Below are positions 13,286 to 60,551 of a stretch of 64,000 nucleotides of DNA, piece by piece. Position 1 is the first letter of the stretch, and every line of letters begins with the position of its first letter. The notes beneath the pieces were generated by a model. That model was not told where the DNA came from. It searched no databases and was given only the letters and a program-made list of their open reading frames with translations. This DNA is from a virus: the IMG/VR virus record IMGVR_UViG_3300045911_000602; one strand, written 5' to 3'. A program made the translations under genes and the position numbers.

Positions 13286-13293
13286 ATGTGAGC

Positions 13294-13321: not shown

Positions 13322-13327
13322 CTGTTT

Positions 13328-13750: not shown

Positions 13751-13785
13751 GGCATCTGTTCCTGTCTTGTCGTACAAGATTGCGC

Positions 13786-13813
13786 ATTATACAGGAATTT
13801 GGGTTAAAGACAA
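13786..13813 (-). promoter_or_regulatory. MORN promoter cassette: TTGTCT, 16-nt spacer, TATAAT
   Basis: -10 at 13786-13791 and -35 at 13808-13813. Confidence 0.6.
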
Positions 13814-13819
13814 CAGTTT

Positions 13820-14302: not shown

Positions 14303-14346
14303 GGTCTTTATGGCATCTGTTCCTGTCTTGCTAAATTATGTTCAGC

Positions 14347-14374
14347 ATTATACAGGAATTTGGGTAAAAGACAA
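14347..14374 (-). promoter_or_regulatory. MORN promoter cassette: TTGTCT, 16-nt spacer, TATAAT
   Basis: -10 at 14347-14352 and -35 at 14369-14374. Confidence 0.6.
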
Positions 14375-14380
14375 CTGCTT

Positions 14381-15010: not shown

Positions 15011-15045
15011 GGCATCTGTTCCTGTCTTGCTAAATTATGTTCAGC

Positions 15046-15073
15046 ATTATACAGGAATTTGGGTAAAAGACAA
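15046..15073 (-). promoter_or_regulatory. MORN promoter cassette: TTGTCT, 16-nt spacer, TATAAT
   Basis: -10 at 15046-15051 and -35 at 15068-15073. Confidence 0.6.
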
Positions 15074-15079
15074 CTGCTT

Positions 15080-15778: not shown

Positions 15779-15813
15779 GGCACCTGTCCCTGTCTTGCTA
15801 AATTATGTTCAGC

Positions 15814-15841
15814 ATTATACAGGGATCTCATTTAAAGAGAA
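15814..15841 (-). promoter_or_regulatory. MORN promoter cassette with a weaker -35: TTCTCT, 16-nt spacer, TATAAT
   Basis: -10 at 15814-15819 and -35 at 15836-15841. Confidence 0.5.
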
Positions 15842-16544
15842 GTGGGTTTTGACTAAACTTTTCAATCAAGTGTTGTTTTTGTTCTTTGCTGAGTTTCAAC
15901 TTCTTCAACCATTCATTAAAGGAAAGTTTAACATTATCCAAGTACCAATAAATGGATCCATCAGAGTTGATAACAGCAGGTCCATCTTCGCGGTGAAGGT
16001 TTCCATTCAGGTACCACACTTCGGAACCATCATTATACACAATCGCAGGTCCATCTTCGCGATGGAGTTTTCCATTCAAATACCAGAACTTAGAACCATT
16101 GCTATAGATAATTGCAGGTCCATCTTCCCGATGGAGTTTCCCGTTCAAGTACCATTCTTCGAAACGGTTTCTATAGACAACTGCAGGTCCATTTTCCCGA
16201 TGAAGCTTCCCGTGCAAGTACCAATACTTGGTACCATCACTATACACAATCGCAGGTCCATCTTCACGATGTCGTTGTCCATTCAAGTACCAGAACTTAG
16301 AACCATTGTCAATAATGGCAGGTCCATCTTCCCGATGAAGTTTTCCGTTCAAATACCAATGCTCATTACCGTTACGATACACAATCGCGGGTCCATCTTC
16401 ACGATGAAGTTCCCCGTTCAAGTACCAGATCTGAGAACCATTGCTATAGATAGCTGCAGGTCCATCCTCACGATGAAGTTTTCCATTCAAATACCAGTAC
16501 TGATCGCCTTTCGAATTTACAACGTATTCAATCTCAGTGTTCAT
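15828..16544 (-). CDS. MORN-repeat protein, paralog 5 (8 repeats, variant tail ending NPLLFK)
   Basis: Start moved to the conserved MNTEI ATG at 16544. Confidence 0.85.
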   Translation of the reverse strand: MNTEIEYVVNSKGDQYWYLNGKLHREDGPAAIYSNGSQIWYLNGELHREDGPAIVYRNGNEHWYLNGKLHREDGPAIIDNGSKFWYLNGQRHREDGPAIVYSDGTKYWYLHGKLHRENGPAVVYRNRFEEWYLNGKLHREDGPAIIYSNGSKFWYLNGKLHREDGPAIVYNDGSEVWYLNGNLHREDGPAVINSDGSIYWYLDNVKLSFNEWLKKLKLSKEQKQHLIEKFSQNPLLFK

Positions 16545-16579
16545 GGCATCTGTTCCTGTCTTAGCACACAAGATTGAGC

Positions 16580-16607
16580 ATTATACGGGGATTTGGGTAA
16601 AAGACAA
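16580..16607 (-). promoter_or_regulatory. MORN promoter cassette: TTGTCT, 16-nt spacer, TATAAT
   Basis: -10 at 16580-16585 and -35 at 16602-16607. Confidence 0.6.
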
Positions 16608-16645
16608 CTGCTTTACGATATCGTTTTCCGTTCGAGTATCAATAC

Positions 16646-16978
16646 TCAGCACCAATACTCAGTACCATCACTATGCACAATTGCAGGTCCATCTTCCCGA
16701 TGGAGCTTCCCGTTCACATACCAGAATTCTGAACCATCAGCATGGATAATAGCAGGTCCATCTTTCCGGTGGCGATGTCCATTCAGGTACCATTCTTTGG
16801 AACCATCAGCGTTGATAATAGCAGGTCCATCTTCACGGTGGTATCTCCCATGTTTGTACCATTCTTCAGTACCGTCAGCATAGATGACAGCAGGTCCATC
16901 TTCCCGATGGAGTTTTCCATTCAAGTACCAGAGTTGATTCCCATCGAAATTTACGATTCGTCGATTCGTGGTCTTCAT
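16646..16978 (-). pseudogene. 3'-truncated MORN paralog 6 (4 repeats, no C-terminal tail)
   Basis: The ORF stops inside a repeat, right after a 13-nt direct duplication CAATACTCAG(C/T)AC on the plus strand at about 16652-16677. The out-of-frame repeat remnant is fused directly to the next promoter cassette. Confidence 0.55.
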
Positions 16979-17013
16979 GGCATCTGTTCCTGTCTTGTTA
17001 AATTATGTTCAGC

Positions 17014-17041
17014 ATTATACAGGTATTTAGTTAAAAGACAA
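17014..17041 (-). promoter_or_regulatory. MORN promoter cassette: TTGTCT, 16-nt spacer, TATAAT
   Basis: -10 at 17014-17019 and -35 at 17036-17041. Confidence 0.6.
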
Positions 17042-17047
17042 CTGCTT

Positions 17048-17401
17048 TTAACTAAACTTCAGAATCATATGTAGTTTTTCTTCTTCGCTAATTTTCAGCT
17101 TTTTCAACCATTGATCAAAACTGTATTCAACACCATTCAAGAACCATTCACGTGTCCCATCAGCATTGATAACAGCAGGTCCATCCTCACGATGAAGGTT
17201 CCCATTCAAGTACCAGAACTGAGAACCATCATCGAGAATAGCTGCAGGTCCGTCTTCGCGATGAAATTTCCCGTGCTTGTACCAACGTTCAACACCGTCA
17301 GCATAGATAACAGCAGGTCCGTCTTCGCGATGAAATTTTCCATTGAACAACCAATATTGATTGCCTTCAGAATCCACAACTGATTGAATCTCAGTATTCA
17401 T
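17048..17401 (-). CDS. MORN-repeat protein, paralog 7 (3 repeats plus tail)
   Basis: Start moved to the MNTEIQ ATG at 17401. Confidence 0.85.
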   Translation of the reverse strand: MNTEIQSVVDSEGNQYWLFNGKFHREDGPAVIYADGVERWYKHGKFHREDGPAAILDDGSQFWYLNGNLHREDGPAVINADGTREWFLNGVEYSFDQWLKKLKISEEEKLHMILKFS

Positions 17402-17436
17402 GGCATCTGTTCCTGTCTTGTTAAGCAATGTTCAGC

Positions 17437-17464
17437 ATTATACAGGGATTTGGGTAAAAGACAA
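17437..17464 (-). promoter_or_regulatory. MORN promoter cassette: TTGTCT, 16-nt spacer, TATAAT
   Basis: -10 at 17437-17442 and -35 at 17459-17464. Confidence 0.6.
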
Positions 17465-17470
17465 CTGCTT

Positions 17471-18100
17471 TTAACCAAACTTGAGAATCAAGTGCAGCTT
17501 CTCTTCTTTATTAGATTTGCTTTTCTCTAACCACTCATTAAAAGAAAGTTTAATATCGTTTAAAAACCACAACTTAGTACCATCTCTATGAACAATTGCA
17601 GGTCCATCTTCACGATGTCGTTTTCCGTGCTTGTACCAACGTTCAACACCGTTATCATAGATAACAGCAGGTCCATCTTCTCGGTGGAGTTTTCCGTTCA
17701 AATACCATTCTTCGGAACCATTGCTGTAGATAACAGCAGGTCCATCTTCACGATGTCGTTTTCCGTGCTTGTACCAACGTACAACACCGTTAGTATAGAT
17801 AACAGCAGGTCCATCTTCTCGGTGGAGTTTTCCATTCAAGTACCATTCTTGGTGACCATCATTGTGAATAACAGCAGGTCCATCTTCACGATGTCGTTGT
17901 CCATTCAAGTACCAACGTTGAGAACCATTGGTATAGATAATGGCAGGTCCATCTTCTCGGTGGAGTTTTCCATTCAAGTACCATTCTTGGTGACCATCGT
18001 TGAGAATAATAGCAGGTCCATCTTCACGATGGAGGTTCCCATTCAAGTACCAATATTGGTTTCCTACAGAATCCACAACTGATTGAATCTTAGCATTCAT
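17471..18100 (-). CDS. MORN-repeat protein, paralog 8 (7 repeats plus tail)
   Basis: Start moved to the MNAKIQ ATG at 18100. Confidence 0.85.
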   Translation of the reverse strand: MNAKIQSVVDSVGNQYWYLNGNLHREDGPAIILNDGHQEWYLNGKLHREDGPAIIYTNGSQRWYLNGQRHREDGPAVIHNDGHQEWYLNGKLHREDGPAVIYTNGVVRWYKHGKRHREDGPAVIYSNGSEEWYLNGKLHREDGPAVIYDNGVERWYKHGKRHREDGPAIVHRDGTKLWFLNDIKLSFNEWLEKSKSNKEEKLHLILKFG

Positions 18101-18135
18101 GGCATCTGTTCCTGTCTTGTTAAGCAATGTTGAGC

Positions 18136-18163
18136 ATTATACAGGGATTTGGGTAAAAGACAA
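18136..18163 (-). promoter_or_regulatory. MORN promoter cassette: TTGTCT, 16-nt spacer, TATAAT
   Basis: -10 at 18136-18141 and -35 at 18158-18163. Confidence 0.6.
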
Positions 18164-18186
18164 CTGCTTTTAACCAAATTACAATT

Positions 18187-18672
18187 TCAAACATCATCGT
18201 TAACTTTTCTTACTTCACGAATTGTAATTGATTTTTTTGAAATTCGGTTTGCCTTCCTGGCAGCCATACCATGCAAACTCCTTAGAGCCTTTGAAGAAGC
18301 CTCATATGTGCGGCGATAATACTTACCGTCTTGGCGACTTACGTAATATGCGAATACTTCAAACTTCTGTGGCTTTTCAAGAAAAAAGAATTCGGAAATC
18401 AAAGCTTCCAGATGTTCTTCGAATTCTTCGTTCGTATTAAACGCAGCCCGATCGCTTTCCAACCACTTTTCTACATCATCATGCGTCCTATACCCAATGC
18501 AACCATCCTGCAGAGCAATCGAAAGCTTCATCACGTCCCACTTATCGAAAATCATGATTGCTTCCATGTGATTCAGCATCCAATAAATATCTTCGTCCAC
18601 TGGATTGGATTTTGTTACTTCAGCGACCTTTGTCTTGAAAAACTCGAAGGTATATTTCATTGATTCGCTCAT
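18187..18672 (-). CDS. hypothetical protein (161 aa), non-MORN gene inside the array
   Basis: ORF with its own promoter. Confidence 0.7.
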   Translation of the reverse strand: MSESMKYTFEFFKTKVAEVTKSNPVDEDIYWMLNHMEAIMIFDKWDVMKLSIALQDGCIGYRTHDDVEKWLESDRAAFNTNEEFEEHLEALISEFFFLEKPQKFEVFAYYVSRQDGKYYRRTYEASSKALRSLHGMAARKANRISKKSITIREVRKVNDDV

Positions 18673-18693
18673 TTATTAATGAATTGAAACCGA

Positions 18694-18722
18694 ATTATAC
18701 ATATCCAACACTATAATGTCAA
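18694..18722 (-). promoter_or_regulatory. sigma70-type promoter: TTGACA, 17-nt spacer, TATAAT
   Basis: -10 at 18694-18699 and -35 at 18717-18722. Confidence 0.6.
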
Positions 18723-18729
18723 CAACTTT

Positions 18730-18805
18730 TGGCGCCCCTGGCAGGAATCGAACCCACACCTAAACGGGTAGAAGCCGTTCGCTCTTTCCATTAAGCTACA
18801 GGGGC
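18730..18805 (-). tRNA. tRNA-Arg(UCU), CCA encoded
   Basis: Folded by hand. Acceptor GCCCCUG/CAGGGGC; D stem GCUU/GAGC; anticodon arm AACGG-CUUCUAC-CCGUU; T-arm GUGGG-UUCGAUU-CCUGC. Confidence 0.9.
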
Positions 18806-18831
18806 GAAAAACTACATCAAACAATACCTCC

Positions 18832-18859
18832 ACTATACAGGAATTTGGGTAAATAACAA
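18832..18859 (-). promoter_or_regulatory. promoter cassette variant: TTGTTA, 16-nt spacer, TATAGT, upstream of tRNA-Arg
   Basis: -10 at 18832-18837 and -35 at 18854-18859. Confidence 0.5.
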
Positions 18860-18886
18860 CAGCTTTCAACCAAACTTCGGAATCAA

Positions 18887-19561
18887 TTAAAGTTTTTGTT
18901 TTTCGCTCAATTTTATTTGTTCCGACCATTGATCGAAAGTGAAATAGTCACCATCCAAGAACCAAAATTTACTAGTAACATCAAAAAAAACTGCAGGTCC
19001 ATCTTTCCGATGGAGTTTCCCATTCAAGTACCAGAACTTAAAACCGTTGCTATAGATAACGGCAGGTCCATCTTCACGATGAAGTTTTCCGTTCAAATAC
19101 CAATACTTAGAACCATCACTGCGAATAGCTGCAGGTCCATCTTTCCGATGGAGTTTCCCATTCAAGTACCATTCTTCGAGACCATTATTGCGAATAATGG
19201 CAGGTCCATCTTCACGATGTCGTTGTCCATTCAAGTACCATTCTTGTGTCCAATTAACGCAATTAACAGCGGGTCCATTTTCTCGATGGAGTTTTCCATT
19301 CAAGTACCAGTACTCTGAACCATCGCTATAAACAAGTGCAGGTCCATCCTCACGATGGTACTTTCCGTTCAGGAACCATTCTTGAAAACCATCACTATGC
19401 ACAATGGCAGGTCCGTCTTCCCGATGGAGCTTCCCGTCCTTATACCAACGTTCGGAACCATCAGCACCAATAATAGCAGGTCCATCTTCTCGGTGGAGAA
19501 CATCATTCATGTACCAGAACTGATTCCCTTTACGATCTACGCGTTGAATTCCAGCATTCAT
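18887..19561 (-). CDS. MORN-repeat protein, paralog 9 (8 repeats, slightly shortened tail)
   Basis: Start moved to the MNAGIQ ATG at 19561. Confidence 0.85.
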   Translation of the reverse strand: MNAGIQRVDRKGNQFWYMNDVLHREDGPAIIGADGSERWYKDGKLHREDGPAIVHSDGFQEWFLNGKYHREDGPALVYSDGSEYWYLNGKLHRENGPAVNCVNWTQEWYLNGQRHREDGPAIIRNNGLEEWYLNGKLHRKDGPAAIRSDGSKYWYLNGKLHREDGPAVIYSNGFKFWYLNGKLHRKDGPAVFFDVTSKFWFLDGDYFTFDQWSEQIKLSEKQKL

Positions 19562-19596
19562 GTGACATACTCCTGTCTTAGCACACAATATTGAGC

Positions 19597-19624
19597 ATTG
19601 TACAGGGATTTGAGTAAAAAACAA
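19597..19624 (-). promoter_or_regulatory. MORN promoter cassette variant: TTGTTT, 16-nt spacer, TACAAT
   Basis: -10 at 19597-19602 and -35 at 19619-19624. Confidence 0.5.
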
Positions 19625-19630
19625 CTGCTT

Positions 19631-20044
19631 TTAACCAAATTTCAGAATCAAGTGCAGCTTTTCTTCTTCGCTCAATTTCAGTTGTTCCAACCATTCGTTG
19701 AAGGCGAAATTGTCATCATGCAAGAACCAAAGTTTAGTACCATCGGCGTTAAAATAAGCAGGCCCATCTTCGCGGTGAAGCTCCCCATGCAGGTACCAAT
19801 ACTCTGAACCATCCATATAGGTAACAGCAGGTCCATTTTCACGATGGAGCTTTCCATGTTTATACCAATGTTTAGAACCACTAGCACCGATGACAGCAGG
19901 TCCGTCTTCGCGATGAAATTTTCCATTGAAGTACCATTCTTCAGGACCATGGCTGTAGATAGCGGCAGGTCCATCTTCTCGGTGGAGTTTTCCATTCAAG
20001 TACCAGAACTGATTTCCGTGGGCATCTACAATATGTCGTCTCAT
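19631..20044 (-). CDS. MORN-repeat protein, paralog 10 (4 repeats plus tail)
   Basis: Start moved to the MRRHIV ATG at 20044, which has an AGGTGA RBS. Confidence 0.8.
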   Translation of the reverse strand: MRRHIVDAHGNQFWYLNGKLHREDGPAAIYSHGPEEWYFNGKFHREDGPAVIGASGSKHWYKHGKLHRENGPAVTYMDGSEYWYLHGELHREDGPAYFNADGTKLWFLHDDNFAFNEWLEQLKLSEEEKLHLILKFG

Positions 20045-20083
20045 GGTATTCGTATCACCTGTTCTTGTCATACAACGTTGAGC

Positions 20084-20111
20084 ATTATAGAGGAATTTGG
20101 CTAAATAACAA
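20084..20111 (-). promoter_or_regulatory. MORN promoter cassette variant: TTGTTA, 16-nt spacer, TATAAT
   Basis: -10 at 20084-20089 and -35 at 20106-20111. Confidence 0.55.
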
Positions 20112-20117
20112 CCGCTT

Positions 20118-20738
20118 TTAACCAAATTTCAGAATCAAGTGCAGTTTTTCCTCTTCGCTCAATTTTATTTGTTCCAACCATTCTTTGAAAGTGAACTCAA
20201 CATCATTCAAGTACCATTCTTTAGTACCAGTAGCACTGATAATAGCAGGTCCATCTTCCCGGTGTCGTTTTCCGTTCAAATACCAGAACTGAGAACCATT
20301 GCTATGGATAACAGCAGGTCCATCTTCCCGGTGTCGTTTTCCGTTCACATACCAGAACTTAGAACCATTGCTATAGATAACAGCGGGTCCATCTTCGCGA
20401 TGAAATTTTCCATTCAAGTACCATTCTTCAGTACCATTACTATCAATAATGGCAGGTCCATCTTCCCGGTGTCGCTTTCCATTCAGGAACCATTCTACGG
20501 AACCCTCAGCAAAAACAACCGCAGGTCCATCTTCACGATGAAGTTTTCCGTGTTTGTACCAATATTTAGGACCATCAACATTGATAACTGCAGGTCCATC
20601 TTCACGGTGAAGTTTTCCGTTGAAGTACCATTCTTCGGAACCATCACTATGCACAATGGCAGGTCCATCTTCCCGGTGTCGTTTTCCGTTCAAGTACCAG
20701 AACTGATTCCCCTTATGATCTACAACACGTCGTCTCAT
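20118..20738 (-). CDS. MORN-repeat protein, paralog 11 (7 repeats plus tail)
   Basis: Start moved to the MRRRVV ATG at 20738. Confidence 0.8.
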   Translation of the reverse strand: MRRRVVDHKGNQFWYLNGKRHREDGPAIVHSDGSEEWYFNGKLHREDGPAVINVDGPKYWYKHGKLHREDGPAVVFAEGSVEWFLNGKRHREDGPAIIDSNGTEEWYLNGKFHREDGPAVIYSNGSKFWYVNGKRHREDGPAVIHSNGSQFWYLNGKRHREDGPAIISATGTKEWYLNDVEFTFKEWLEQIKLSEEEKLHLILKFG

Positions 20739-20777
20739 GGTATTCATATCACCTGTTCTTGTCATACAATGTTGAGC

Positions 20778-20805
20778 ATTATAGAGGAATTTGGCTAAAT
20801 AACAA
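20778..20805 (-). promoter_or_regulatory. MORN promoter cassette variant: TTGTTA, 16-nt spacer, TATAAT
   Basis: -10 at 20778-20783 and -35 at 20800-20805. Confidence 0.55.
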
Positions 20806-21089
20806 CCGCTTTTAACCCCCCATACAAATCATCTGTTGATCAATTACCCAATTTCACATACAATGCTGCTCATCTACAGAGAGCACCATAAGAGTGCAAC
20901 TGGATGCTAAGAGCCAAACCATGGCGGAGGCAGGGGGGAGCTATGGTTCTAATCCAAACCTGGACAAAATAACCATTTTCAAAAAAGTCAACAAAAAAAT
21001 AATGTTGTCATAATGTTTGTTTGTATTTTTCCAAATCTCGTTTTCTTGTATTATGGACACCATAAAATGAAGGATATAACAGCTTTCGC

Positions 21090-33933: not shown

Positions 33934-33962
33934 ATCTATTATAACCAATATAATTTCTTAAA

Positions 33963-35216
33963 ATGATTACTTACAAACTTCCAATTCAACTAACCGACGA
34001 CGAAAAGAAGATGATCCTTGAATTCCAAAGGATTCAATCTTCAATGATTCGTTCTGCATATAAGCAAGCTGAATATGGTTGTGCTGAAATCTCTATAAGA
34101 CAGGAAATTCGAGACAGATTTAAAGATCAACTCGATTCCTGGTTCCAACAATCAGCGGTCAAATGTGGAATCGGAATGTTCAAATCCGATCACGAAACTG
34201 GTCGATCTGGTCGAATCTTTGGTGGCAAAGGCAATCTGATTAGACGTGCAAAAGGATTGATCAGCAATGAAGAATGGAAACAAAAACGCCTTCTTCCATT
34301 GTATCTCGTTGGTGAAGCACCAACCAAAGGAAATCGTAAGTTCGAGTTCCGTGAAGACCATGTTGTCTTCAAGCCATATAATGGCTGTAAAATCAAAATT
34401 AATCTACCATCAATGAGAAAAAACTGGTCAAAGATTTGGAAACAATTATTAATTATGACATCTGAGAAGCAAATACCAATCACTGTTTCTTTGACCATTG
34501 ACTCCATTTCCTTTTCTTTTGATGACACCAAGGTAAAACAAGAAATCAAAAAAATTCCAAAACCAATCAAGAATAGATATGCTGGAATTGATATGAATCC
34601 AAATTATATTGGCATTTCTGTTTTTAATGGAACAGAGTTGATTGAAACTAAGCTGTTCTCGTTGAAATCACTGACTGGGAAAAATGCCAGTGCTTCAAAA
34701 CTTGAACATGAAACAAGAGAAATTGGGCATGCAATAGGTAAGTGGCTTCAGCATCTACGAGTTGACAAGTTGTTCATCGAAAAGCTAAAATTTAAACAAG
34801 GCGATAAAAGGATAGGTAAGAATTTTAATCGCTTAACACAGAACCAATGGAAGAAAATAACTTTAAGGTCAATTCTAGCCAAATACTTTAAGTTATATGA
34901 AATCAATGCTGCCTATTCCTCAACAATTGGCAATACTTTACATCCCGAATTACCAGACCCGATAGCCGCAAGTACTGAGATTGCACAACGAGGCTACCGG
35001 CTTGTGATACTCAAGAACAAACAGTTCTATCCAAAACTACCAGCAATAAAGTATCTAGAGGACCTATGGAAGGAAACCAAGATACCTTTGGTCAATAACT
35101 GGAAAGAACTACATTCTTGGGTCAAAAACTCGAAATTGAAATATCGAGTTCCGGTTCCAGACGAATCGGTTTTTAGAATTTTTCAGTCACCAGCTAGTTT
35201 GGTTGGTGTTCTATAG
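33963..35216 (+). CDS. tnpB: TnpB-like RuvC nuclease (IS607-associated type) with no zinc-finger cysteines, copy 1
   Basis: RuvC-like triad candidates are AGIDMNPN (D), LFIEKLKF (E) and ELPDPIAASTEIAQRG (D). AAYSSTIG replaces the usual PxYTSQxC. There are no CxxC pairs in the C-terminal half. Confidence 0.75.
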   Translation: MITYKLPIQLTDDEKKMILEFQRIQSSMIRSAYKQAEYGCAEISIRQEIRDRFKDQLDSWFQQSAVKCGIGMFKSDHETGRSGRIFGGKGNLIRRAKGLISNEEWKQKRLLPLYLVGEAPTKGNRKFEFREDHVVFKPYNGCKIKINLPSMRKNWSKIWKQLLIMTSEKQIPITVSLTIDSISFSFDDTKVKQEIKKIPKPIKNRYAGIDMNPNYIGISVFNGTELIETKLFSLKSLTGKNASASKLEHETREIGHAIGKWLQHLRVDKLFIEKLKFKQGDKRIGKNFNRLTQNQWKKITLRSILAKYFKLYEINAAYSSTIGNTLHPELPDPIAASTEIAQRGYRLVILKNKQFYPKLPAIKYLEDLWKETKIPLVNNWKELHSWVKNSKLKYRVPVPDESVFRIFQSPASLVGVL

Positions 35217-35298
35217 ATTTGTATTGCTTATATGAATTTATATGGAAAATTTATTTTATATTGTTCAGTAATAGTCAACTGTTCAGTTTTATGACAGA

Positions 35299-36630: not shown

Positions 36631-37875
36631 ATGGTCCTAAGAGCATACAAGTATCGGTTATATCCAACCAAAGAACAAGAACAGTTCTTGTTGCAAAACT
36701 TTGGTGCAGTCCGCTTTGTTTGGAACCAACTTGTAGCTAACTTCAATTCTTGGTCTAAGGACAAACCAGTTCAGACGGTCACAGAAAAGACCTTAAAAGA
36801 CGATCCTAGATATCCTTGGTTGAACGAAGCCATCAGCTACGCTTTGCAACAAAAGCGAATGGACTTTGATGAGACCAAGAAGCAATTCTTCAACAAGAAA
36901 CGAGCAATCAAACTTGGACGGATGAAGTTCAAATGCAAAGGTCGCTCTAGAGATTCTTTTAGGATTCCTGGTTCTGTGCTTCCAAAAGCAAATCTTGAGA
37001 TGTGCGAGACTGGTCAAATTGTCATCCCAAAGATGACTCCAATGAAGATGGTTGTTGATCGGAAGTTCCATGGCATCATCAAGAACATCACCGTTTCTCG
37101 CAACAAAGCAAATCAGTATTTTGTAAGTGTTCTGGTCGAAGAAGCAAAACCAGAGCCTTTACCAAATACCTATCGTGCTGTAGGTATTGATCTTGGGTTG
37201 AAAGATTTGGCTGTCCTTAGTGACGGCCATAGACTAACTAATCCGAGATGGTTTAGAGAAAGCCAATCTAAACTAAAAAGAGCACAACAGCATTTAAGTC
37301 GCAAACAAAAGGGAAGCAATCGTCGTAAGAGACAGCAGCTGAAGGTCAATCGTATCTATTTGAAAATCATCAATCAACGGAACCATCTACATCATGAGTT
37401 TTCCAAGTGGCTTGTTGAGAATTATGACTACATCTATCTTGAAGATCTAGCTGTTCAAGAGATGATGCAATCTAAGTCAAAGACTAGAAACAAGAACATT
37501 GCAGATGCGAGTTGGTCATCATTGGTATCTAAAATTGAGTACAAAGCAAATTGGTATGGCAAGGAATTTGCCAAGGTTGATCGTTACTTTGCTTCTAGTC
37601 AAGTTTGTTCTACTTGTGGTCATCATGATGGAAAGAAATCGCTAGATGTCCGTCAATGGACCTGCTCATCTTGTGGTTCAGTTCATGATCGAGACTTGAA
37701 TGCTGCCAAGAACATTGAACAAGAAGCCTCGAGAGATTTGGTTAATTGGATTAAAAGAGGCAACAGAGAATTAAGCAACTCGGCCGAATCAGTCGAGAAC
37801 AGACATCGAGAAGTGCTAAGACCAGTGGTCGGTACGACATTGGCTGCTTCGTTGAAGTGTCCAGCGATTTTATAA
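36631..37875 (+). CDS. tnpB: TnpB (IS200/IS605-IS1341 type) with a zinc finger; no adjacent tnpA
   Basis: YKYRLYPTKEQ N-terminus, GIDLGLKD (D), IYLEDLAV (E), CSTCG...CSSCG zinc finger and HDRDLNAAKNI (D). Confidence 0.9.
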   Translation: MVLRAYKYRLYPTKEQEQFLLQNFGAVRFVWNQLVANFNSWSKDKPVQTVTEKTLKDDPRYPWLNEAISYALQQKRMDFDETKKQFFNKKRAIKLGRMKFKCKGRSRDSFRIPGSVLPKANLEMCETGQIVIPKMTPMKMVVDRKFHGIIKNITVSRNKANQYFVSVLVEEAKPEPLPNTYRAVGIDLGLKDLAVLSDGHRLTNPRWFRESQSKLKRAQQHLSRKQKGSNRRKRQQLKVNRIYLKIINQRNHLHHEFSKWLVENYDYIYLEDLAVQEMMQSKSKTRNKNIADASWSSLVSKIEYKANWYGKEFAKVDRYFASSQVCSTCGHHDGKKSLDVRQWTCSSCGSVHDRDLNAAKNIEQEASRDLVNWIKRGNRELSNSAESVENRHREVLRPVVGTTLAASLKCPAIL

Positions 37876-37935
37876 GATTTTATGGAATCGCATGATTATC
37901 ATGATAACAAGCAACCAATTCATAAGTTTCTTGTT

Positions 37936-38175
37936 TTACCAAAAATAAGATACGTTGCCGTGGTTATTTGTTTCGACACGAATTCTTGTTTCGTGTTGTT
38001 TTACTTTTTCTTTAATTAAATCAATTATTTCTTTTCCAAAGATAGCATAACCTTCTTCACCAAAAAGATCAGCAAGAGCAACATTTTCTGGAGTGATTGT
38101 ACCTTCTAGTACAAAAGTAATTTCCGGTCGGTATGTTTGTTTATTGTATTTTATATCAAAATGAGTAATCTTCAT
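37936..38175 (-). CDS. hypothetical protein (79 aa)
   Basis: ORF immediately downstream, on the minus strand, of copy 1 of the 197-nt element. Confidence 0.6.
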   Translation of the reverse strand: MKITHFDIKYNKQTYRPEITFVLEGTITPENVALADLFGEEGYAIFGKEIIDLIKEKVKQHETRIRVETNNHGNVSYFW

Positions 38176-38212
38176 AGTGTGAGATCTCCTGCAATTATTT
38201 ATCGTCTTTTAA

Positions 38213-38409
38213 GCCGAGAAACCCATGTGATCTTCAGTCACGTGGATGAATCGGCCCATTGGTATCTAATTAATTTGTAGTCATAAATAGTAATGTCTGG
38301 TTGTGGGACGCAGTCGGACATTAAACAAAAACCGAAGGAGGCGTCGATGCTGTTAGGTCGAGTCAATGAGTTCGGAAACCGTGTCGTGTTTAGCTACGCG
38401 GTAGTTCAT
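38213..38409 (-). ncRNA. conserved noncoding element of about 197 nt, copy 1: a candidate structured RNA. Strand is tentative.
   Basis: About 80 percent identical to 42540-42735, with long invariant cores (AGTAATGTCTGGTTGT, GGACGCAGTCG, TTAAACAAAAACCGAAGGAGGCGTCGATGC, GAGTTCGGAAACC, TTTAGCTACGCGGTAGTT). No conserved ORF. Confidence 0.45.
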
Positions 38410-38426
38410 GTGCTAATTGATGTTGA

Positions 38427-38499
38427 TAGCAAACGCGGGATTCGAACCCACGGTTCGTACTACTAGAAACAACGCTTTAAATACATTTAACCCTTTGCC
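38427..38499 (-). tRNA. tRNA-like element (73 nt) with anticodon loop UU-CUA-GU, as in an amber suppressor. It is non-canonical and may be a pseudo-tRNA.
   Basis: The T-arm GUGGG-UUCGAAU-CCCGC is good, and acceptor GGCAAAG/GUUUGCU has 6 of 7 pairs. The anticodon stem has U.U and G.G mismatches. The D-arm is UUAA/UUAA and lacks the GG. Confidence 0.35.
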
Positions 38500-38596
38500 G
38501 CCTCGTGACTAGCACGATATTGTTGGATTTCGCCGGGCGGCTGATTAACTATCAAACACGTAAATGAACTATAAAAATTAGAGTATTAATTTTTAG

Positions 38597-41884: not shown

Positions 41885-42493
41885 TTATTGTTCGACAACA
41901 ATTTTAATAACTTTACCGGCACCGATTTCTTCAAGTGCGTCAAACGCTTTTTCTTTTGTTTCGAAAATCATAGCATCGCGAGCTTTTGGATCTTCAAATT
42001 CTGTCCACTTTGTTGTGTAAGAGTCGAATTCGCAAAGAACGCGTAAATCGTGAGATGGGTGTGAAACAATATAGTATTCTGTTAGTTTTTTCTTTAATGA
42101 ATAAAACATTGTGTTTGCGTGTGGAACTGAGATCCCAAGTTCCATAACAGCAAAGGTAATAAAATCTTTTCTTTTGGCTTCAGGATTTGCTTTAATCCAT
42201 TCACGAATCTTAGTTGATATTTCGCCGCGTGGTCTTTTTGCCTTCTCAGTTGATTCTTCTTTCTTGACAGAAGAAGGTTTTGTATTTGGTGTTTGTTTTT
42301 TTGGTGCTTCGCTAGCTGGCGTTGTCTTTTTCTTTATTGGAAGTTCTTCATCGACATCAATCCCCTTTGCTTTTAATTCTTTTTCGGAACGCTTAATTAA
42401 CTCGCGCTCAGAAGGAGAAAGATCGTCTTCATCGTCAAAACCAAATTGTTTATTGAACCAATTTTCTTTAATCAGTTGCTTAAGAATGCTCAT
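41885..42493 (-). CDS. hypothetical protein (202 aa) with a K/E-rich linker and HTH-like motif ISVPHANTMFYSLKKKL
   Basis: ORF downstream, on the minus strand, of copy 2 of the 197-nt element. Confidence 0.7.
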   Translation of the reverse strand: MSILKQLIKENWFNKQFGFDDEDDLSPSERELIKRSEKELKAKGIDVDEELPIKKKTTPASEAPKKQTPNTKPSSVKKEESTEKAKRPRGEISTKIREWIKANPEAKRKDFITFAVMELGISVPHANTMFYSLKKKLTEYYIVSHPSHDLRVLCEFDSYTTKWTEFEDPKARDAMIFETKEKAFDALEEIGAGKVIKIVVEQ

Positions 42494-42539
42494 TTTTGTC
42501 TCCTGAATATATAAATGTATTTAACTATTTATAAATCGA

Positions 42540-42735
42540 GCTGAGAAAAACACATGATTTTTAGTCGCGTGGATGAAACAACACATTGGTATTTAACCGG
42601 TTTGTGATCATAAACAGTAATGTCTGGTTGTAGGACGCAGTCGAACGTTAAACAAAAACCGAAGGAGGCGTCGATGCGGTTAGGTTGAGTCGATGAGTTC
42701 GGAAACCACGAAGTCTTTAGCTACGCGGTAGTTTA
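42540..42735 (-). ncRNA. conserved noncoding element of about 197 nt, copy 2: a candidate structured RNA. Strand is tentative.
   Basis: See 38213-38409. It lies between the bS21 gene and 41885..42493. Confidence 0.45.
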
Positions 42736-42791
42736 TCTTAAAAGAGACAAAAAGAAGTGAAATGCTGCCGATTATTAGTTTTTTGCTGTTT

Positions 42792-43016
42792 TTAATACAT
42801 CTTTTCTGGGAGCTTTTGCTTTGCTAGATCACGTTTCCAACGCATGATAGCAGCAGCTTTCTTACGATTTTTTCTAATGCCGGGTCTTTCATAAAACGCT
42901 TTTTCTTGCAAGGTTTTAAGAATACCACAATCGTCAACTTTCTTTTTTAACTTACGTAGTGCAATTTCGATGTGCTTTATTTCTTGTTTTTCTGGGTCTA
43001 GGTATACTTTTGGCAT
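42792..43016 (-). CDS. rpsU: ribosomal protein bS21
   Basis: MPKV...IEIALRKLKKKVDDCGILKTLQEKAFYERPGIRKNRKKAAAIMRWKR aligns with recalled E. coli S21 ([41 protein letters not shown]). Confidence 0.85.
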   Translation of the reverse strand: MPKVYLDPEKQEIKHIEIALRKLKKKVDDCGILKTLQEKAFYERPGIRKNRKKAAAIMRWKRDLAKQKLPEKMY

Positions 43017-44010: not shown

Positions 44011-45342
44011 TATAAATACATTATAACCAATATAAATTTCTAAGAATGATCACCTACAAACTTCCAATTCAGCTAACTGATGAAGAAAAGAAAATGGTCC
44101 TTGAATTCCAGAGGATCCAGTCTTCAATGATCCGTTCTGCATATAAGCAAGCCGAATTTGGTTGTACCGAAATTTCTATAAGACAGGAAATTCGAGATAG
44201 GTTCAAAAGTCAGCTTGATTCCTGGTTCCAGCAATCTGCTGTTAAATATGGAATAGGGATGTTCAAATCAGATCATGAAACTGGTCGATTGGGTCGGGTT
44301 TTTGGTGGCAAAGGCAATCTGATTAGACGTGCAAAGGGACTTATTTCAAAAGAAGAATGGAAACAAAAACGACTTCTTCCGTTGTATCTAATTGGTGAAG
44401 CACCAGCTAAGGGGAATCGCAAGTTTGAGTTCCGGGAAGACCATGTTGTCTTCAAGCCATATAACGGTTGTAAAATCAAAATCGATCTTCCTAACATAAG
44501 GAAGAACTGGTCGAGAATGTGGAACCAGCTCTTAGTTATGGCTTCTGAGAAGCAATTGCCGATCACTGTTTCTTTAACTATTGAATCCATCTCTTTTTCT
44601 TTTGATGACGTTAAGGTGAAACAAGAGATCAGAAAAATACCAAAACCAATCAAGAATAGATATGCAGGCATTGATCTGAACCCAAATTATATTGGCATTT
44701 CTGTTTTTGATGGAACAAAACTGATTGAAACCAGATTGTTTTCATTAAAGACATTAACTGGAAAGAATGCCAGTGCTTCAAAACTTGAACATGAAACAAG
44801 AGAAATTGGGCATGCAATAGGTAAGTGGCTTCAACATCTACGAGTTGATAAGTTATTTATTGAAAAGCTAGAATTTAAACAAGGCGATAAAGGCATTGGC
44901 AAAAACTTCAATCGCTTAACACAGAACCAATGGAAGAAAATAACTTTAAGGTCAATTCTAGCCAAATACTTCAAGCTATACGAAATCAATGCTGCCTATT
45001 CATCAACTATTGGCAACATCTTACATCCGGAATTACCAGACCCGGTAGCAGCTAGTACTGAGATTGCACAACGAGGCTACCGGCTTGTGATACTCAAGAA
45101 CAAACAGTTCTATCCAAAACTACCAGCAATAAAGTATCTAGAGGACCTATGGAAGGAAACCAAGATACCTTTGGTAGAGACTTGGAAAGAGCTACATTCT
45201 TGGGTCAAAAACTCGAAATTGAAATATCGGGTTCCGGTTCCAAATGAGTCGGTTTTTAGAATTTTCCAGTCACCAGCTAGTTTGGTTGGTGTTTTATAGA
45301 TTTGTATTGCTTATATGAATTTATATGGAAAATTTATTTTAT
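44011..45342 (+). mobile_element. tnpA-less copy of the IS607-type tnpB unit
   Basis: Homology with copy 1 starts at TATAAAT..ATTATAACCAATATA (about 25 nt of the tnpA 3' end is retained). It ends after ...AAAATTTATTTTAT at 45342, overlapping the stop codon of the ligase C-terminal gene. Confidence 0.6.
44046..45299 (+). CDS. tnpB: TnpB-like RuvC nuclease (IS607-associated type) with no zinc finger, copy 2
   Basis: About 90 percent amino-acid identity to 33963..35216. Both ORFs are intact, and most 5' differences are synonymous. Confidence 0.75.
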   Translation: MITYKLPIQLTDEEKKMVLEFQRIQSSMIRSAYKQAEFGCTEISIRQEIRDRFKSQLDSWFQQSAVKYGIGMFKSDHETGRLGRVFGGKGNLIRRAKGLISKEEWKQKRLLPLYLIGEAPAKGNRKFEFREDHVVFKPYNGCKIKIDLPNIRKNWSRMWNQLLVMASEKQLPITVSLTIESISFSFDDVKVKQEIRKIPKPIKNRYAGIDLNPNYIGISVFDGTKLIETRLFSLKTLTGKNASASKLEHETREIGHAIGKWLQHLRVDKLFIEKLEFKQGDKGIGKNFNRLTQNQWKKITLRSILAKYFKLYEINAAYSSTIGNILHPELPDPVAASTEIAQRGYRLVILKNKQFYPKLPAIKYLEDLWKETKIPLVETWKELHSWVKNSKLKYRVPVPNESVFRIFQSPASLVGVL

Positions 45343-46154
45343 GTGATCATACCCTTTAATTGTTCAACGTCAATAATTTTTACATTTAGTTGTTTTGCTT
45401 TATCAAGTTTTGTGGACGATCCATTAATATTTTCGGCAACAACAAAAGATGTTGTTTTTGAAACAGATCCAGACACCTTTCCGCCCAATAAAACAATCTG
45501 TTCTTCGAGTTCTTTGGAACGAAAGCCCGTAAAAACAAAAGTAAGATTGTTTAATTTACCTTGTGGTTTTGGTTGATATGGAGCCAATATAATATATTTG
45601 CTTACTTTACCAAAGAATTCAACAAATTTTGAATAACCATTAGCAATTTTTGTTGCTGTTTTATGATCAAACCCATCAACGAGTGTAATATCAAGAACCG
45701 ATTGACATTTGGTCATATCTCCTTCAAACGCTTCGTAAAGTTTTTTCATTTTACGAATACCAATCCCGCGACCGAACGCAGGATGTGCCCCCATTAAAAC
45801 ATATAAAGGAATGTTTGTCAGTTTGTCTCGGAGCCCCTTGTAGATCTTTTTTCCGTTTGCTTTTCCAATTACACCACAAACTTCACTTTCAGTAATTGAA
45901 ATAATATCTTCTGGTTTCGTAAAACCAACATTATATAAAGCACGAAGACTTCCTTCCTTAAGAGAAGGAATATCAAGCTCTGCAAAGAAATCAAGAAGTT
46001 GCTGGAACAGTACTTCTTCATGAGTATCTTTGTTCTTTAAAACAATATCTACGGCAGTATCATTCCAGCACCAGTTTCCAGCACCAACGAGTTGATCAAT
46101 TTGTTGATTAAACCACTTGAGGTATTTTTCGTTATATGAATTCATTATTTTCAT
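45339..46154 (-). CDS. ligA: NAD-dependent DNA ligase, C-terminal fragment (HhH plus BRCT domains)
   Basis: BRCT block LTFVFTGFRSKELEEQIVLLGGKVSGSVSKTTSFVVAEN, preceded by HhH-like GxG repeats. Confidence 0.7.
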   Translation of the reverse strand: MKIMNSYNEKYLKWFNQQIDQLVGAGNWCWNDTAVDIVLKNKDTHEEVLFQQLLDFFAELDIPSLKEGSLRALYNVGFTKPEDIISITESEVCGVIGKANGKKIYKGLRDKLTNIPLYVLMGAHPAFGRGIGIRKMKKLYEAFEGDMTKCQSVLDITLVDGFDHKTATKIANGYSKFVEFFGKVSKYIILAPYQPKPQGKLNNLTFVFTGFRSKELEEQIVLLGGKVSGSVSKTTSFVVAENINGSSTKLDKAKQLNVKIIDVEQLKGMIT

Positions 46155-56290: not shown

Positions 56291-56471
56291 GTTATTACCT
56301 GTCGAAGAAGTTGTTAATGGTATTTACTGAACTACCGCTTGTATTAACAACTTTTCAAATAATAAAGCAAAGTTATAACTTTACGATACACAAAAACATT
56401 TGAAGAGTCAAGTGTTTTGGCGTTAGCATCCGAACTTGTTATTTCCAGCAACAGCAATTCGCAGATTCTTT

Positions 56472-57759: not shown

Positions 57760-57791
57760 CTTTTTTATTAATTGTTCAACATTACGCACTT

Positions 57792-57814
57792 GAACTACCG
57801 CTAAGCGGTAGTTC
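57792..57814. terminator. perfect 10-bp hairpin GAACTACCGC-TAA-GCGGTAGTTC between convergent genes
   Basis: Read directly. It has no strong U-run, so the terminator function is tentative. Confidence 0.45.
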
Positions 57815-57828
57815 AGTTATGCGGTAGT

Positions 57829-59085
57829 TCATTCAAATTTCACTGTAGTGCCATGTGGTGCAACAACATTAGTCTTATAAGCAAGCCAAAGAGTGGGAGC
57901 ATAGTCAGGATCCCCCCATGTACTACATTCCATGTCAGTGAAACAAACTAATTGCTTGGGCACAATTTCTTCCCCTTTCAGAAATTCCCAGATGCAATTG
58001 AAGTCTGTTCCTCCATCACCTTTAATTTCATAATCGTAAATTTCTTGGACATTTTCCTCGGTGAACGTCTGGCGGTTGTAGACTTGAGTATCAAAAGATG
58101 CAACGTTAATTTTAAATGAAGCGTGCTGTTGCATAATGCCAACTACTTCTGACATGAATACCTTGATTTCGTCAGGTCCAATGGACCCAGACGCGTCCAA
58201 GAATATATCAGCTTCTACTGTAGGTTCGCGTTGCATTGAAGGAAGAACTGCATCACACAACCAACCACGACGATTCGGGCGCATATAGGTGAAATCATTC
58301 TTAATTTGAGATTCAATTTGTTGAACCAAGAGTTCTTTCCAATTCATCTTGGGTTCTGTCAAATCCTTGATCAAGCGACGGACACCAAGGGGAACATTGC
58401 CTACGCCATGAGCCTGGACCGAAGACATTATCGCATCACGAAGTTCGTCCCTGATCTCCGACAGTTCTTTCTCAGACAGACGTGGTTTTCCATTTGGATC
58501 TTCATCATCTCCCTCAGTGTCATTACCAGCATCAGATTCCAGGTGCTCATCAAGCACTTGAGATAACAGACTGTCGATAGAAATTTTCTCTGCATCTTCC
58601 ATGAGCCTCTCGTAGATCTCTTCCGCAGACATGTCTTTGAATTGCGGATCAAAGAGGCAAGGAAACGTGGTGATTTTCTCGCCGATCTTGAATTCAATTA
58701 GATCTCGGTTGACTGCATAGTCAGCAGCAATGTTCCAAAGTTGGGCATTGCGATCAAGGCAACGTCCGCTTTTGCCCACATGTTCATAGACAGCATGAAG
58801 AATTTCATGTCCTATTAAGAAAATCACTTCTCGAGGTTTGAGCATATTGACAAATTTAGAATTGTACCAAAGTGTCCGCCCATCGGTTGCGGCAGTGGGA
58901 CACCAGTCAACATCACTCACTAGTCTCAAGCGAGATGCAATATTGCCCCAGAACGGGGTGTGCATAAGCATCGCAATTCGCGCTACTATGATTGCTTGTT
59001 CTGCTTGGCTTTTCTCGGCAGCAGTAGGTTCGCCTTTGATTTTTTCCAACAACGTTGGATCATTGATTTTGGATTTAGACGTCAT
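57829..59085 (-). CDS. VWA-domain protein with an N-terminal zincin-like metallopeptidase motif (CobT-like / DUF2201-type partner of the MoxR ATPase)
   Basis: HEILHAVYEH (HExxH) and a MIDAS-like FLDASGSIG. Confidence 0.75.
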   Translation of the reverse strand: MTSKSKINDPTLLEKIKGEPTAAEKSQAEQAIIVARIAMLMHTPFWGNIASRLRLVSDVDWCPTAATDGRTLWYNSKFVNMLKPREVIFLIGHEILHAVYEHVGKSGRCLDRNAQLWNIAADYAVNRDLIEFKIGEKITTFPCLFDPQFKDMSAEEIYERLMEDAEKISIDSLLSQVLDEHLESDAGNDTEGDDEDPNGKPRLSEKELSEIRDELRDAIMSSVQAHGVGNVPLGVRRLIKDLTEPKMNWKELLVQQIESQIKNDFTYMRPNRRGWLCDAVLPSMQREPTVEADIFLDASGSIGPDEIKVFMSEVVGIMQQHASFKINVASFDTQVYNRQTFTEENVQEIYDYEIKGDGGTDFNCIWEFLKGEEIVPKQLVCFTDMECSTWGDPDYAPTLWLAYKTNVVAPHGTTVKFE

Positions 59086-60346: not shown

Positions 60347-60404
60347 TCTGGTTTCTCCTTGATTAAATGAGAGGGTTTAGTGTTGGTTATCACCGTTATG
60401 GAGC

Positions 60405-60432
60405 ATTGTATAGAAATTTAGGTAAAAGTCAA
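60405..60432 (-). promoter_or_regulatory. promoter cassette: TTGACT, 16-nt spacer, TACAAT. Same 40-bp cassette family as the MORN genes.
   Basis: GCATTGTATAGAAATTTAGGTAAAAGTCAACT here, compared with GCATTATACAGGAATTTGGGTAAAAGACAACT in the array. Confidence 0.6.
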
Positions 60433-60551
60433 CTAATTTTTTAATTCACTGATTTGAAAAGATTTTTTTAAAAAACACCGACATGGTACAGACTAACAGC
60501 AAGAGCTTGTTTGTTCCAGTTATCAAAGCAGCCCTCTTAGACCGACGAAAT

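Follow-up and report, generated by a model that had tools for sequence, protein, structure and literature searches.

A repeated intergenic element in a phage genome is probably a gene-less, PATE-like IS200/IS605 element carrying an omegaRNA scaffold

The repeat pair and its surroundings

The window analysed here is a stretch of 64,000 nucleotides of viral DNA (IMG/VR virus record IMGVR_UViG_3300045911_000602), in which two intergenic segments of about 197 nt, some 80% identical, had been predicted from the letters alone to be copies of one conserved noncoding element. Both segments are present where the original prediction placed them, 38212–38409 and 42539–42736 being 84% identical over 198 nt and gap-free except for one base. 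The count of exactly two copies was also borne out: nhmmer run on the 64-kb window gave significant matches to the two copies alone, and the covariance model described below found both and nothing else significant. A 19-mer search with three mismatches allowed returned three matches against 0.00 expected. The full units run slightly past the low-coordinate edge noted before, to 38203–38409 (copy 1) and 42533–42736 (copy 2).

Both copies sit within minus-strand transcription units and, as had been noted, each lies upstream of a minus-strand gene start, the ORFs in question being 37936..38175 (79 aa, copy 1) and 41885..42493 (202 aa, copy 2), which begin 38–46 nt from the copies. Copy 1 adjoins a tRNA-Trp gene and a tRNA-like T-arm and copy 2 a bS21 homolog (Pfam Ribosomal_S21), the same neighbours that had been named from the sequence. 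A full-length phage TnpB gene (36631–37875) is on the same strand as copy 1, which starts 335 nt downstream of it. The sole plus-strand reading frame of the element is interrupted in copy 2 after four codons, and the statement that no ORF is common to the copies holds, none being intact in both. The motif (A/T)GAACTACCGC, which had been described as recurring, does exist: its reverse complement is a transposon right-end tip, GCGGTAGTTCAY, found again at 57790–57832 and 56327–56338. Elsewhere in the window, a region of 69-nt periodicity at 13.3–20.8 kb was considered as a CRISPR-like array and rejected, since it is a 23-aa coding repeat.

The original prediction had matched the element to no RNA family, and the search of Rfam 15 (4227 models) was equally empty, with zero matches for either copy at the gathering threshold or at E ≤ 10. 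Among the INPHARED cultured-phage records nothing matched the repeat in a blastn 'distant' search.

Homologs of the repeat and their link to tnpB

Scanning of IMG/VR with exact cores revealed two true homologs, at loci designated L002 and L048; most of the matches to cores of 15–17 nt were due to chance and lay in unrelated or high-GC contigs. The L002 copy is 92% identical to copy 1. The L048 homolog is more distant and spans one half of the element alone, the one ending in GAACTACCGC. On the strand of L048 equivalent to the plus strand of the window, an ORF reads ...REWTYPAYGEHHDRDVNAAKNILCKRLNQMSGCGMQSDFKHELKEA...; these residues form a TnpB C-terminus with zinc finger and RuvC-III (Pfam Cas12f1-like_TNB), and this RuvC/Zn-finger remnant continues directly into the element. 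The core of copy 1, translated on the plus strand (MSGCGTQSDIKQKPKEAS...), is homologous to the L048 TnpB tail and aligns to TnpB C-terminal tails of the form ...HDRDVNAAKNILKQGLNILSGCGMQSD.KQK..EA.... A protein search returned TnpB C-terminal fragments, every one ending ...NAAKNILKQGLNILSGCGMQSD.KQK..EA..., and a search with a profile of the tail gave 52 viral-contig loci and 29 genome loci, the latter chiefly in MAGs of Bacteroidota and otherwise in archaeal and other MAGs.

In 50+ matching loci, all of them oriented like tnpB and placed at its 3' end, the homologous stretch stops within about 10 nt of the tnpB stop codon. The 3' 120 nt of the repeat (38290–38409; 42617–42736) have their homolog in the final ~120 nt of full-length IS605-type tnpB genes specifying proteins of ~400 aa, with an nhmmer E-value of 2.3e-41 for this part of copy 1. 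Intact tnpB ORFs of 392–442 aa are found in about 20 loci, including L165, L160, L161, L150, L156, L162, L144 and L116. The two of them that were tested against Pfam (L165 and L150) possess HTH_OrfB_IS605, OrfB_IS605 and Cas12f1-like_TNB domains, and this cognate lineage is homologous to ISDra2 TnpB over the full length (E 6e-65). Many viral contigs carry a truncated tnpB remnant beside the matching RNA region (L048, L169, L191, L184). Since the core shares the position of the tnpB 3' end and the right end, it occupies the site of the gene for the TnpB guide RNA (omegaRNA or reRNA). The original prediction had also allowed for a decayed protein-coding remnant; half of this is true, in that the core is derived from tnpB, but the same stretch doubles as an omegaRNA gene.

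Fold and strand of the omegaRNA scaffold

An alignment of 39 sequences (A4) was folded using RNAalifold, which gave four helices. Their positions in copy 1, together with the two scaffolds, are as follows.

38290–38409, plus strand: omegaRNA (reRNA) scaffold of copy 1, recognised by covariance model, nhmmer and consensus pairs
38294–38320, plus strand: stem 1 of copy 1, a long hairpin
38332–38336 with 38371–38375, plus strand: stem 2 of copy 1, enclosing stem 3
38340–38347 with 38358–38364, plus strand: stem 3 of copy 1
38378–38402, plus strand: stem 4 of copy 1, which is also the right-end (RE) hairpin, followed by AGUUCAU
38306–38308 (GGA) with 38405–38407 (UUC), plus strand: candidate pseudoknot of copy 1
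42617–42736, plus strand: omegaRNA scaffold of copy 2, matched by the covariance model over its full length

Stems 1 and 2 are separated by single-stranded AAACAAAAAC. Canonical pairs fill 96.0% of the 1202 cells of the alignment, and 19–20 pairs show compensatory changes on both sides (19/31 in the main four-helix count). Doubly changed cells number 204, against 56 ± 6 in shuffled alignments, and the observed values were reached by 0 of 500 shuffles, while in slid controls, with the 3' partner moved by 1–3 columns, about 27–44% of cells were paired. Of the consensus pairs, 29/31 are canonical in copy 1 and 27/31 in copy 2, and the minimum free energy structure of the single copy 1 sequence (−38.9 kcal/mol, z −2.43) matches the consensus fold. 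A covariance model (R1) built from 34 sequences from outside the window, the window copies and L002 being left out, matched 38290–38409 with 101.8 bits (E 2.7e-23, plus strand, model positions 1–116 of 116) and 42617–42736 with 90.9 bits (E 1.4e-20, plus strand, all 116 positions); the third-best match in the window reached 14.8 bits (E 0.13). With its homologs and its covariation, the repeat is what the original prediction took it for in the broad sense, a conserved structured element of noncoding RNA type.

The candidate pseudoknot joins GRA (columns 98–100) to UUC (columns 204–206). It is 98% paired and rests mostly on conserved bases, with one compensatory change (L164); across the homologs the pair 98–206 is GC in 37 cases and GU in one.

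The helices proposed earlier fared less well. Of the three, AAUGUC/GACAUU alone survives, as the base of stem 1; UCGG/CCGA does not, and GACGC/GCGUC is unsupported, its halves lying in different stems, GACGC near the apex of stem 1 and GCGUC in stem 3. Nor is there a place for the H-type pseudoknot that was to interleave AAUGUC/GACAUU with GACGC/GCGUC, covariation backing one long hairpin (stem 1) instead. As to the strand, the original prediction had made no choice; its helices were drawn on the minus strand, and one patch was said to be more compatible with the plus strand. Canonical pairing in the alignment drops from 96.0% on the plus strand to 76.5% on the minus strand, where 250 G.U cells turn into A.C mismatches, and the RNA strand is therefore the plus strand, in the tnpB sense. 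As judged from the alignment, the structured element is antisense to all of the neighbouring phage genes.

Transposon ends

The left end (LE), the right end and the adjoining sites have the following positions.

38198–38202, plus strand: TTTAT, putative TAM/target site of copy 1, immediately 5' of the LE
38203–38262, plus strand: LE of copy 1, with a hairpin shared with full-length tnpA/tnpB elements
38213–38217 (GCCGA) with 38251–38255 (TCGGC), plus strand: outer stem of the LE of copy 1
38223–38230 (CCATGTGA) with 38238–38245 (TCACGTGG), plus strand: inner hairpin of the LE of copy 1, with loop TCTTCAG, then GGATGAA
38405–38409, plus strand: TTCAT, right-end terminus of copy 1, the transposon-encoded motif (TEM) and the last bases of the element
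42528–42532, plus strand: TTTAT, putative TAM of copy 2, immediately 5' of the LE
42533–42590, plus strand: LE of copy 2, degenerate, aligning with other LEs
42732–42736, plus strand: TTTAT, mutated right-end terminus of copy 2

Both copies thus have the layout TTTAT, LE, linker, omegaRNA scaffold (which is the RE) and flank, the terminal ~118 nt being right end and guide-RNA scaffold region at once. The 5' ~80 nt are common to copy 1, copy 2 and L002. These were considered as a decayed tnpB C-terminus and the idea was rejected: nhmmer with the 80 nt alone matches no tnpB, but the stretch aligns to the left ends of L162, L150 and L154. The same two-tier hairpin, with loop TCTTTAG and GGATG.AA, lies upstream of the full-length elements L162, L150, L154, L151, L117, L116, L149 and L156, and the LE unit is also present in the gene-less L186. 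Its parts follow one another in the order ~17–20 nt, outer stem, GAAAA, inner hairpin, GGATG.AA and closing strand of the outer stem. Copy 1 has GCCGA/TCGGC as its outer stem where L002 has GCTGA/TCAGC, a compensatory change. The loop of the LE hairpin (TCTTCAG/TCTTTAG) is the same as that of stem 4 (family consensus TCTTTAG), and the subterminal hairpins at the two ends are alike, terminal inverted repeats being absent; the hairpins are intact in copy 1 and L002.

Similarity among the loci begins at TTTAT, and the sequence upstream is unrelated. In all but one of the 13 independent left ends (12), TTTAT stands at the aligned position, 16–20 nt upstream of the LE hairpin; the thirteenth has TATAT. 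By the rules of the IS200/IS605 family, TTTAT would be the TAM and target of the element. At the 3' edge TAGTTCA(T/C) is nearly invariant in all 38 homologs that reach it, similarity ends there, and the right ends finish in TTCAT or TTCAC. No direct repeat flanks either copy, as expected for insertion that leaves no target-site duplication. A 136-aa Y1 tnpA gene is located between LE and tnpB in L150, L154, L116 and L117, and the one TnpA tested (L150) matched Pfam Y1_Tnp with an E-value of 1.9e-33. The presence of tnpA and tnpB together in these relatives therefore makes this a bona fide IS200/IS605 family. We regard it as very probable (roughly 0.87) that each copy in the window is a gene-less, non-autonomous, PATE-like IS200/IS605 element of ~205 bp possessing LE, linker and omegaRNA scaffold.

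State of the copies, predicted guides and helper genes

The remaining features of the two units are predicted guides and candidate promoters.

38410–38425, plus strand: predicted 16-nt guide of copy 1, GTGCTAATTGATGTTG
42737–42752, plus strand: predicted guide of copy 2, CTTAAAAGAGACAAAA
38259–38264 (TTGGTA) and, after 17 nt, 38282–38287 (CATAAA), plus strand: candidate internal promoter of copy 1
42586–42591 and 42609–42614, plus strand: candidate promoter of copy 2, with hexamers and 17-nt spacing kept

Copy 1 looks intact, with all of its parts kept, including the fold of the LE. Copy 2, to judge by its bases, is decaying in the LE, in stem 4 and at the terminus. Its inner LE hairpin (CACATGA, 42551–42557; TCGCGTG, 42565–42571) has one mismatch and the outer stem is lost, so that folding fails to give the canonical two-tier structure (−6.5 kcal/mol versus −16 to −29 for other LEs), and stem 4 has two mismatches. 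Its terminus, TTTAT, carries the sole T-for-C at that column among the 38 homologs, the others having TTCAY. The change makes the terminus identical to the putative TAM, and it converts the G-C of the pseudoknot to a weakened G.U. With such a terminus a copy 2 RNP would therefore target its own locus. The sequence suggests that a cognate TnpB is not currently acting on copy 2, and argues that this copy, at least, is not in use.

The guides were assigned by analogy with ISDra2 (PMC10097598), and neither of them has a second target in the window at ≤ 2 mismatches. The weak promoter-like pair TTGGTA-17-CATAAA would start an RNA roughly where stem 1 begins; its spacer varies in sequence between the copies. 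A scan with the sigma-70 consensus called no promoter on the plus strand inside the element. A Y1 tnpA or a cognate tnpB was sought in the window and none was found; for any activity at present, a helper would therefore be needed from the host or from another part of the phage genome. The full-length phage TnpB at 36631–37875 was considered as the cognate partner and is unsupported in that role, being 34% identical to the cognate lineage and having a different 3' RNA region, which ends ...CAATTCAT and gives no significant match to covariance model R1.

Mobility and origin of the gene-less elements

Besides the element, the 12.9-kb L002 locus has just one short repeat of 28–32 nt in common with the window, in comparisons of DNA and of translations. 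The L002 copy has the same two boundaries as copy 1, and the occurrence of a 92%-identical copy in this otherwise unrelated phage contig therefore argues, from distribution, that the unit is mobile. A recent duplication within the window is not the origin of its two copies, since copy 1 has 92% identity to L002 and 84% to copy 2. The genes that flank the element differ at every locus. The predicted empty site of L002 was searched for and none was found, the search with the L002 flank matching L002 itself alone; relatives of the 202-aa flanking gene were sought in IMG/VR and none was found, with no empty site there. A 27-mer core had no matches in the metagenome collection.

Other gene-less types have informative junctions. 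In L186 the LE motif GGGATGTAA is joined to the tnpB codons GAT GTA AAT (D-V-N), a microhomology deletion, and in L185, L189 and L190 a mere 11 nt of LE are joined to ...AAKNIL. A metagenome scan with a 21-mer yielded 21 contigs with many more gene-less copies, none closer to the window type; up to four copies of a short element per contig start ~10 nt before stem 1, some of them after TTTAT. The junctions indicate that gene-less derivatives of the transposon carrying the guide RNA arose several times, independently, and that one route of derivation was deletion between GATGTAA in the LE and GATGTAA (D-V-N) in tnpB. Every gene-less type seen has retained the whole scaffold, stem 1 included; this is no proof of selection, since stem 1 or the sequence beside it was the anchor in two of the three orphan searches, which are biased accordingly.

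Comparison with known systems

The ISDra2 TnpB omegaRNA (reRNA) was reportedly described by Karvelis and by Altae-Tran, both in 2021. In structures of the Deinococcus radiodurans complex (8H1J, 8EXA) it possesses a 116-nt scaffold with stems 1–4 and a pseudoknot of −5U..−3C with −103A..−105G, just before the guide (PMC10097598). The window RNA resembles it in consisting of the last part of tnpB and the right end on the tnpB strand, in its ~116–118-nt scaffold with stem 1, stem 2 enclosing stem 3 and a terminal stem 4, in the candidate 3-bp pseudoknot of G-N-A from the apical region of stem 1 with U-U-C at −5..−3, and in a cognate protein lineage homologous to ISDra2 TnpB over its full length. 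It differs in that primary-sequence similarity is undetected by Rfam models, that the putative TAM is TTTAT and not TTGAT, and that the window RNA gene is without a tnpB in cis.

Palindrome-associated transposable elements (PATEs) are gene-less IS200/IS605 derivatives of haloarchaea and Geobacillus stearothermophilus that 'often encode omegaRNAs' for use in trans by TnpB (PMC10055086). Like them, the window element lacks a protein gene, bears a subterminal hairpin at its left and at its right end, exists in several copies in different contexts, and carries an omegaRNA that would need a TnpB in trans. Unlike the PATEs of cellular chromosomes it resides in a phage genome; it belongs to another IS605 sub-lineage than those described (loop TCTTTAG, putative TAM TTTAT), and the case for its mobility comes from its distribution.

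Phage T4 has two stable RNAs, species 1 and 2 (rnaC/rnaD), in its tRNA cluster. A stable RNA of this kind, cotranscribed with tRNAs, had been offered as a precedent, and the window element is likewise a small noncoding element beside phage tRNA genes. The comparison goes no further: the structure is on the strand opposite to the tRNAs, the homologs of the sequence are tnpB 3' ends, transposon ends are its bounds, and the second copy is not beside a tRNA gene.

The transposon-associated RNAs of Rfam include the HEARO/IscB omegaRNA, RAGATH-18 of IS607 TnpB and the IS605-orfB motifs. The window RNA shares their functional class, guide-RNA scaffolds that lie at one end of OMEGA-type transposons; none of the models, however, reaches E = 10 on either copy. 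The omegaRNA lineage of the window element is not represented in Rfam 15. Some of the family names used here for Rfam transposon-associated RNAs are from PMC11061315.

Alternative explanations

The repeats might be inert scars, that is, full-length tnpB elements that decayed in place to leave solo right ends or tnpB pseudogene remnants, immobile and without function. Truncated tnpB remnants do stand next to the same RNA region in many viral contigs, copy 2 is degenerate and helper genes are absent from the window. Independent decay would not, however, yield copies with shared boundaries and a shared LE-linker-scaffold order in three unrelated contexts (copy 1, copy 2 and L002); moreover, the 5' 80 nt match left ends and are not tnpB-coding, and every helix is retained in copy 1, so we hold this history to be very unlikely. 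A structured RNA of the minus strand, either a stable RNA processed from a tRNA transcript or the 5' leader or riboswitch that the original prediction gave as its second suggestion, has for it the placement of the copies shortly upstream of minus-strand ORF starts inside minus-strand units, and most helices are formally possible on the complement. Its probability is nevertheless close to nil. The G.U cells would be mismatches on that strand, the homologous sequence lies inside an intact tnpB ORF in about 20 loci, and no Rfam riboswitch or leader matches. A cis-acting leader is further opposed by the downstream gene, which differs from locus to locus: it specifies a 79-aa and a 202-aa protein in the window and a gp25-like baseplate protein in L002, and in L048 the element follows the end of a gene and has no minus-strand gene downstream.

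It is also conceivable, at a very low probability of its own, that the phage has kept the repeats as domesticated stand-alone guides, loaded by the TnpB at 36631–37875 or by a host TnpB and cutting competitors or the host, or else acting as decoys that would absorb the host TnpB. The phage's own full-length TnpB gene does lie close upstream of copy 1 in the same orientation, every orphan type seen retains the scaffold in full from stem 1 onwards, and a preprint (10.64898/2026.06.01.729453) reportedly describes phage-encoded guide-RNA mimics that subvert Cas9. Against this, the phage TnpB shares 34% identity with the cognate lineage and has a 3' RNA region of another kind, the predicted guides have no further match in the window, transposon ends that a domesticated guide would not need are retained, and the orphan sample is biased towards elements keeping stem 1 by the peptide-pattern searches made there. 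The preferred reading remains that of gene-less, PATE-like transposable elements.

Proposed mechanism

If these PATE-like elements behave as the family does, a Y1 (HUH) TnpA transposase supplied in trans by a full-length relative would recognise both hairpins on the top strand and cut that strand after TTTAT and after TTCAT. The element would leave as a single-stranded circle and re-insert beside another TTTAT in single-stranded DNA, such as the lagging-strand template. Precise excision of copy 1 would leave the donor joint TTTAT|GTGCTAATTG. Such a route of insertion fits the AT-rich intergenic sites, and it fits the orientation shared by both copies and the neighbouring TnpB element, which is opposite to that of the genes. 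The scaffold transcript would cross the right end into the flank and so gain a guide of ~16 nt, with which a cognate TnpB in trans would cut element-free alleles (TTTAT plus a match to the guide); recombination would then restore the element, giving retention and homing.

A bolder proposal, which we consider unlikely, is that phage-borne omegaRNAs devoid of a protein gene work in trans with a host or phage TnpB, either as a guide-only homing 'gene drive' within a phage population or as decoys that reprogram or titrate the host TnpB, the latter by analogy with the phage mimics of Cas9 sgRNAs reported of late. The omegaRNA would in that case be transcribed from its own internal promoter during infection, and the targets of homing would be element-free genomes of co-infecting phages.

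Significance

A conserved RNA that was formerly unassigned now has an identity, a strand, boundaries and a fold. It is not a new class of RNA, the window repeat being a member of a known one, the omegaRNA-bearing PATEs of an ISDra2-like IS605 lineage. What novelty remains lies in an unrepresented omegaRNA lineage, in the putative TTTAT TAM and in the possible use in trans of phage-borne orphan guides. The alignment of 39 sequences with its 19–20 covarying pairs could seed an RNA family, and the putative TAM may be useful in mining for compact TnpB editors, since the cognate proteins of ~400 aa are close relatives of ISDra2 TnpB. For phage biology, gene-less derivatives carrying a guide RNA appear to travel between unrelated phage genomes; if such orphan guides were used in trans during infection, they would constitute a minimal selfish homing system in phages.

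Gene-less derivatives at other loci

Copies 1 and 2, the gene-less mini-elements of the window, have counterparts of the same IS605 lineage at homologous loci outside it, all of them independent derivatives.

L186, 2956-3165: gene-less derivative
L185, L189 and L190, about 2990-3158: gene-less derivatives
L208 (four copies), L202 and L196: further gene-less derivatives

The L186 derivative originated by a deletion running from the GATGTAA of the left end to the GATGTAA of tnpB (codons D-V-N), and in L185, L189 and L190 the left end is reduced to 11 nt. In the metagenome contigs BBPD and BBPE there are up to four short copies per contig, some of which have a different short left end 3' of TTTAT, the inferred TAM.

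Candidate mobile elements in the window

36631-37926 including the 3' region, plus strand: full-length TnpB, 414 aa (HTH_OrfB_IS605, OrfB_IS605 and Cas12f1-like_TNB domains; PHROG 506 'transposase')
33952-35265 and 44035-45344, plus strand: 417-aa gene, two copies, 87% identical

Copy 1 lies 335 nt downstream of the 414-aa TnpB gene on the same strand. The 3' region of this gene is closed by TTCAT (...CAACCAATTCAT at about 37926), the terminus also found in the mini-element. With the cognate TnpB lineage the protein shares only 34% identity; the sequence of its RNA region is unrelated.

The right-end tip, GCGGTAGTTCAY, gave six hits in total against 0.36 expected. Three are packed into 43 nt of the space separating two convergent genes (57790-57832), one of them inverted to form the hairpin GAACTACCGC-taa-GCGGTAGTTC, and another lies at 56327-56338. 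The covariance model, built from omegaRNA homologs outside the window, gave no significant match at either site. Either the same transposon family may have left these recurrences as a footprint or fragment, or they may belong to a terminator mimicking it.

The 417-aa gene had no match in Pfam, PHROG or PDB sequence searches; inspection by eye revealed the RuvC-like motifs GIDLNPNY and NAAYSS. The 5' flanks of the two copies are conserved (family D15), as is a 3' flank of 28-32 nt, which is also present at the locus end (12866-12897) in L002, an otherwise unrelated phage contig with a 92%-identical mini-element. Gene and flanks together look like another mobile element, the gene itself being possibly a very divergent TnpB-like gene.

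Repeat genes and translation-related features

13273-20820, minus strand: about 13 tandem paralogous genes built of a 23-aa (69-nt) repeat (..WYLNGKLHREDGPA..)
38430-38560, minus strand: tRNA-like 3' end, consisting of T-arm GTGGGTTCGAATCCCGC and an acceptor-like strand
42792-43016, minus strand: homolog of ribosomal protein bS21 encoded by the phage (Pfam Ribosomal_S21, E=1.2e-10)

The repeat genes show weak MORN_2 and DUF6745 matches and end in a conserved 61 nt, an extra copy of which occurs at 60384-60444. The superficial resemblance of this region to a repeat/spacer array was dismissed, the region being coding. tRNA-Arg (18730-18805) is located among these genes.

The tRNA-like 3' end weakly matches the Rfam tmRNA 3' end (E=0.017); neither ARAGORN nor the Rfam tRNA model called a tRNA here. 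It lies between copy 1, whose inferred guide points towards it, and tRNA-Trp. The presence of nine tRNA genes, each encoded on the minus strand, alongside the bS21 homolog suggests that the phage is large and carries auxiliary genes related to translation.
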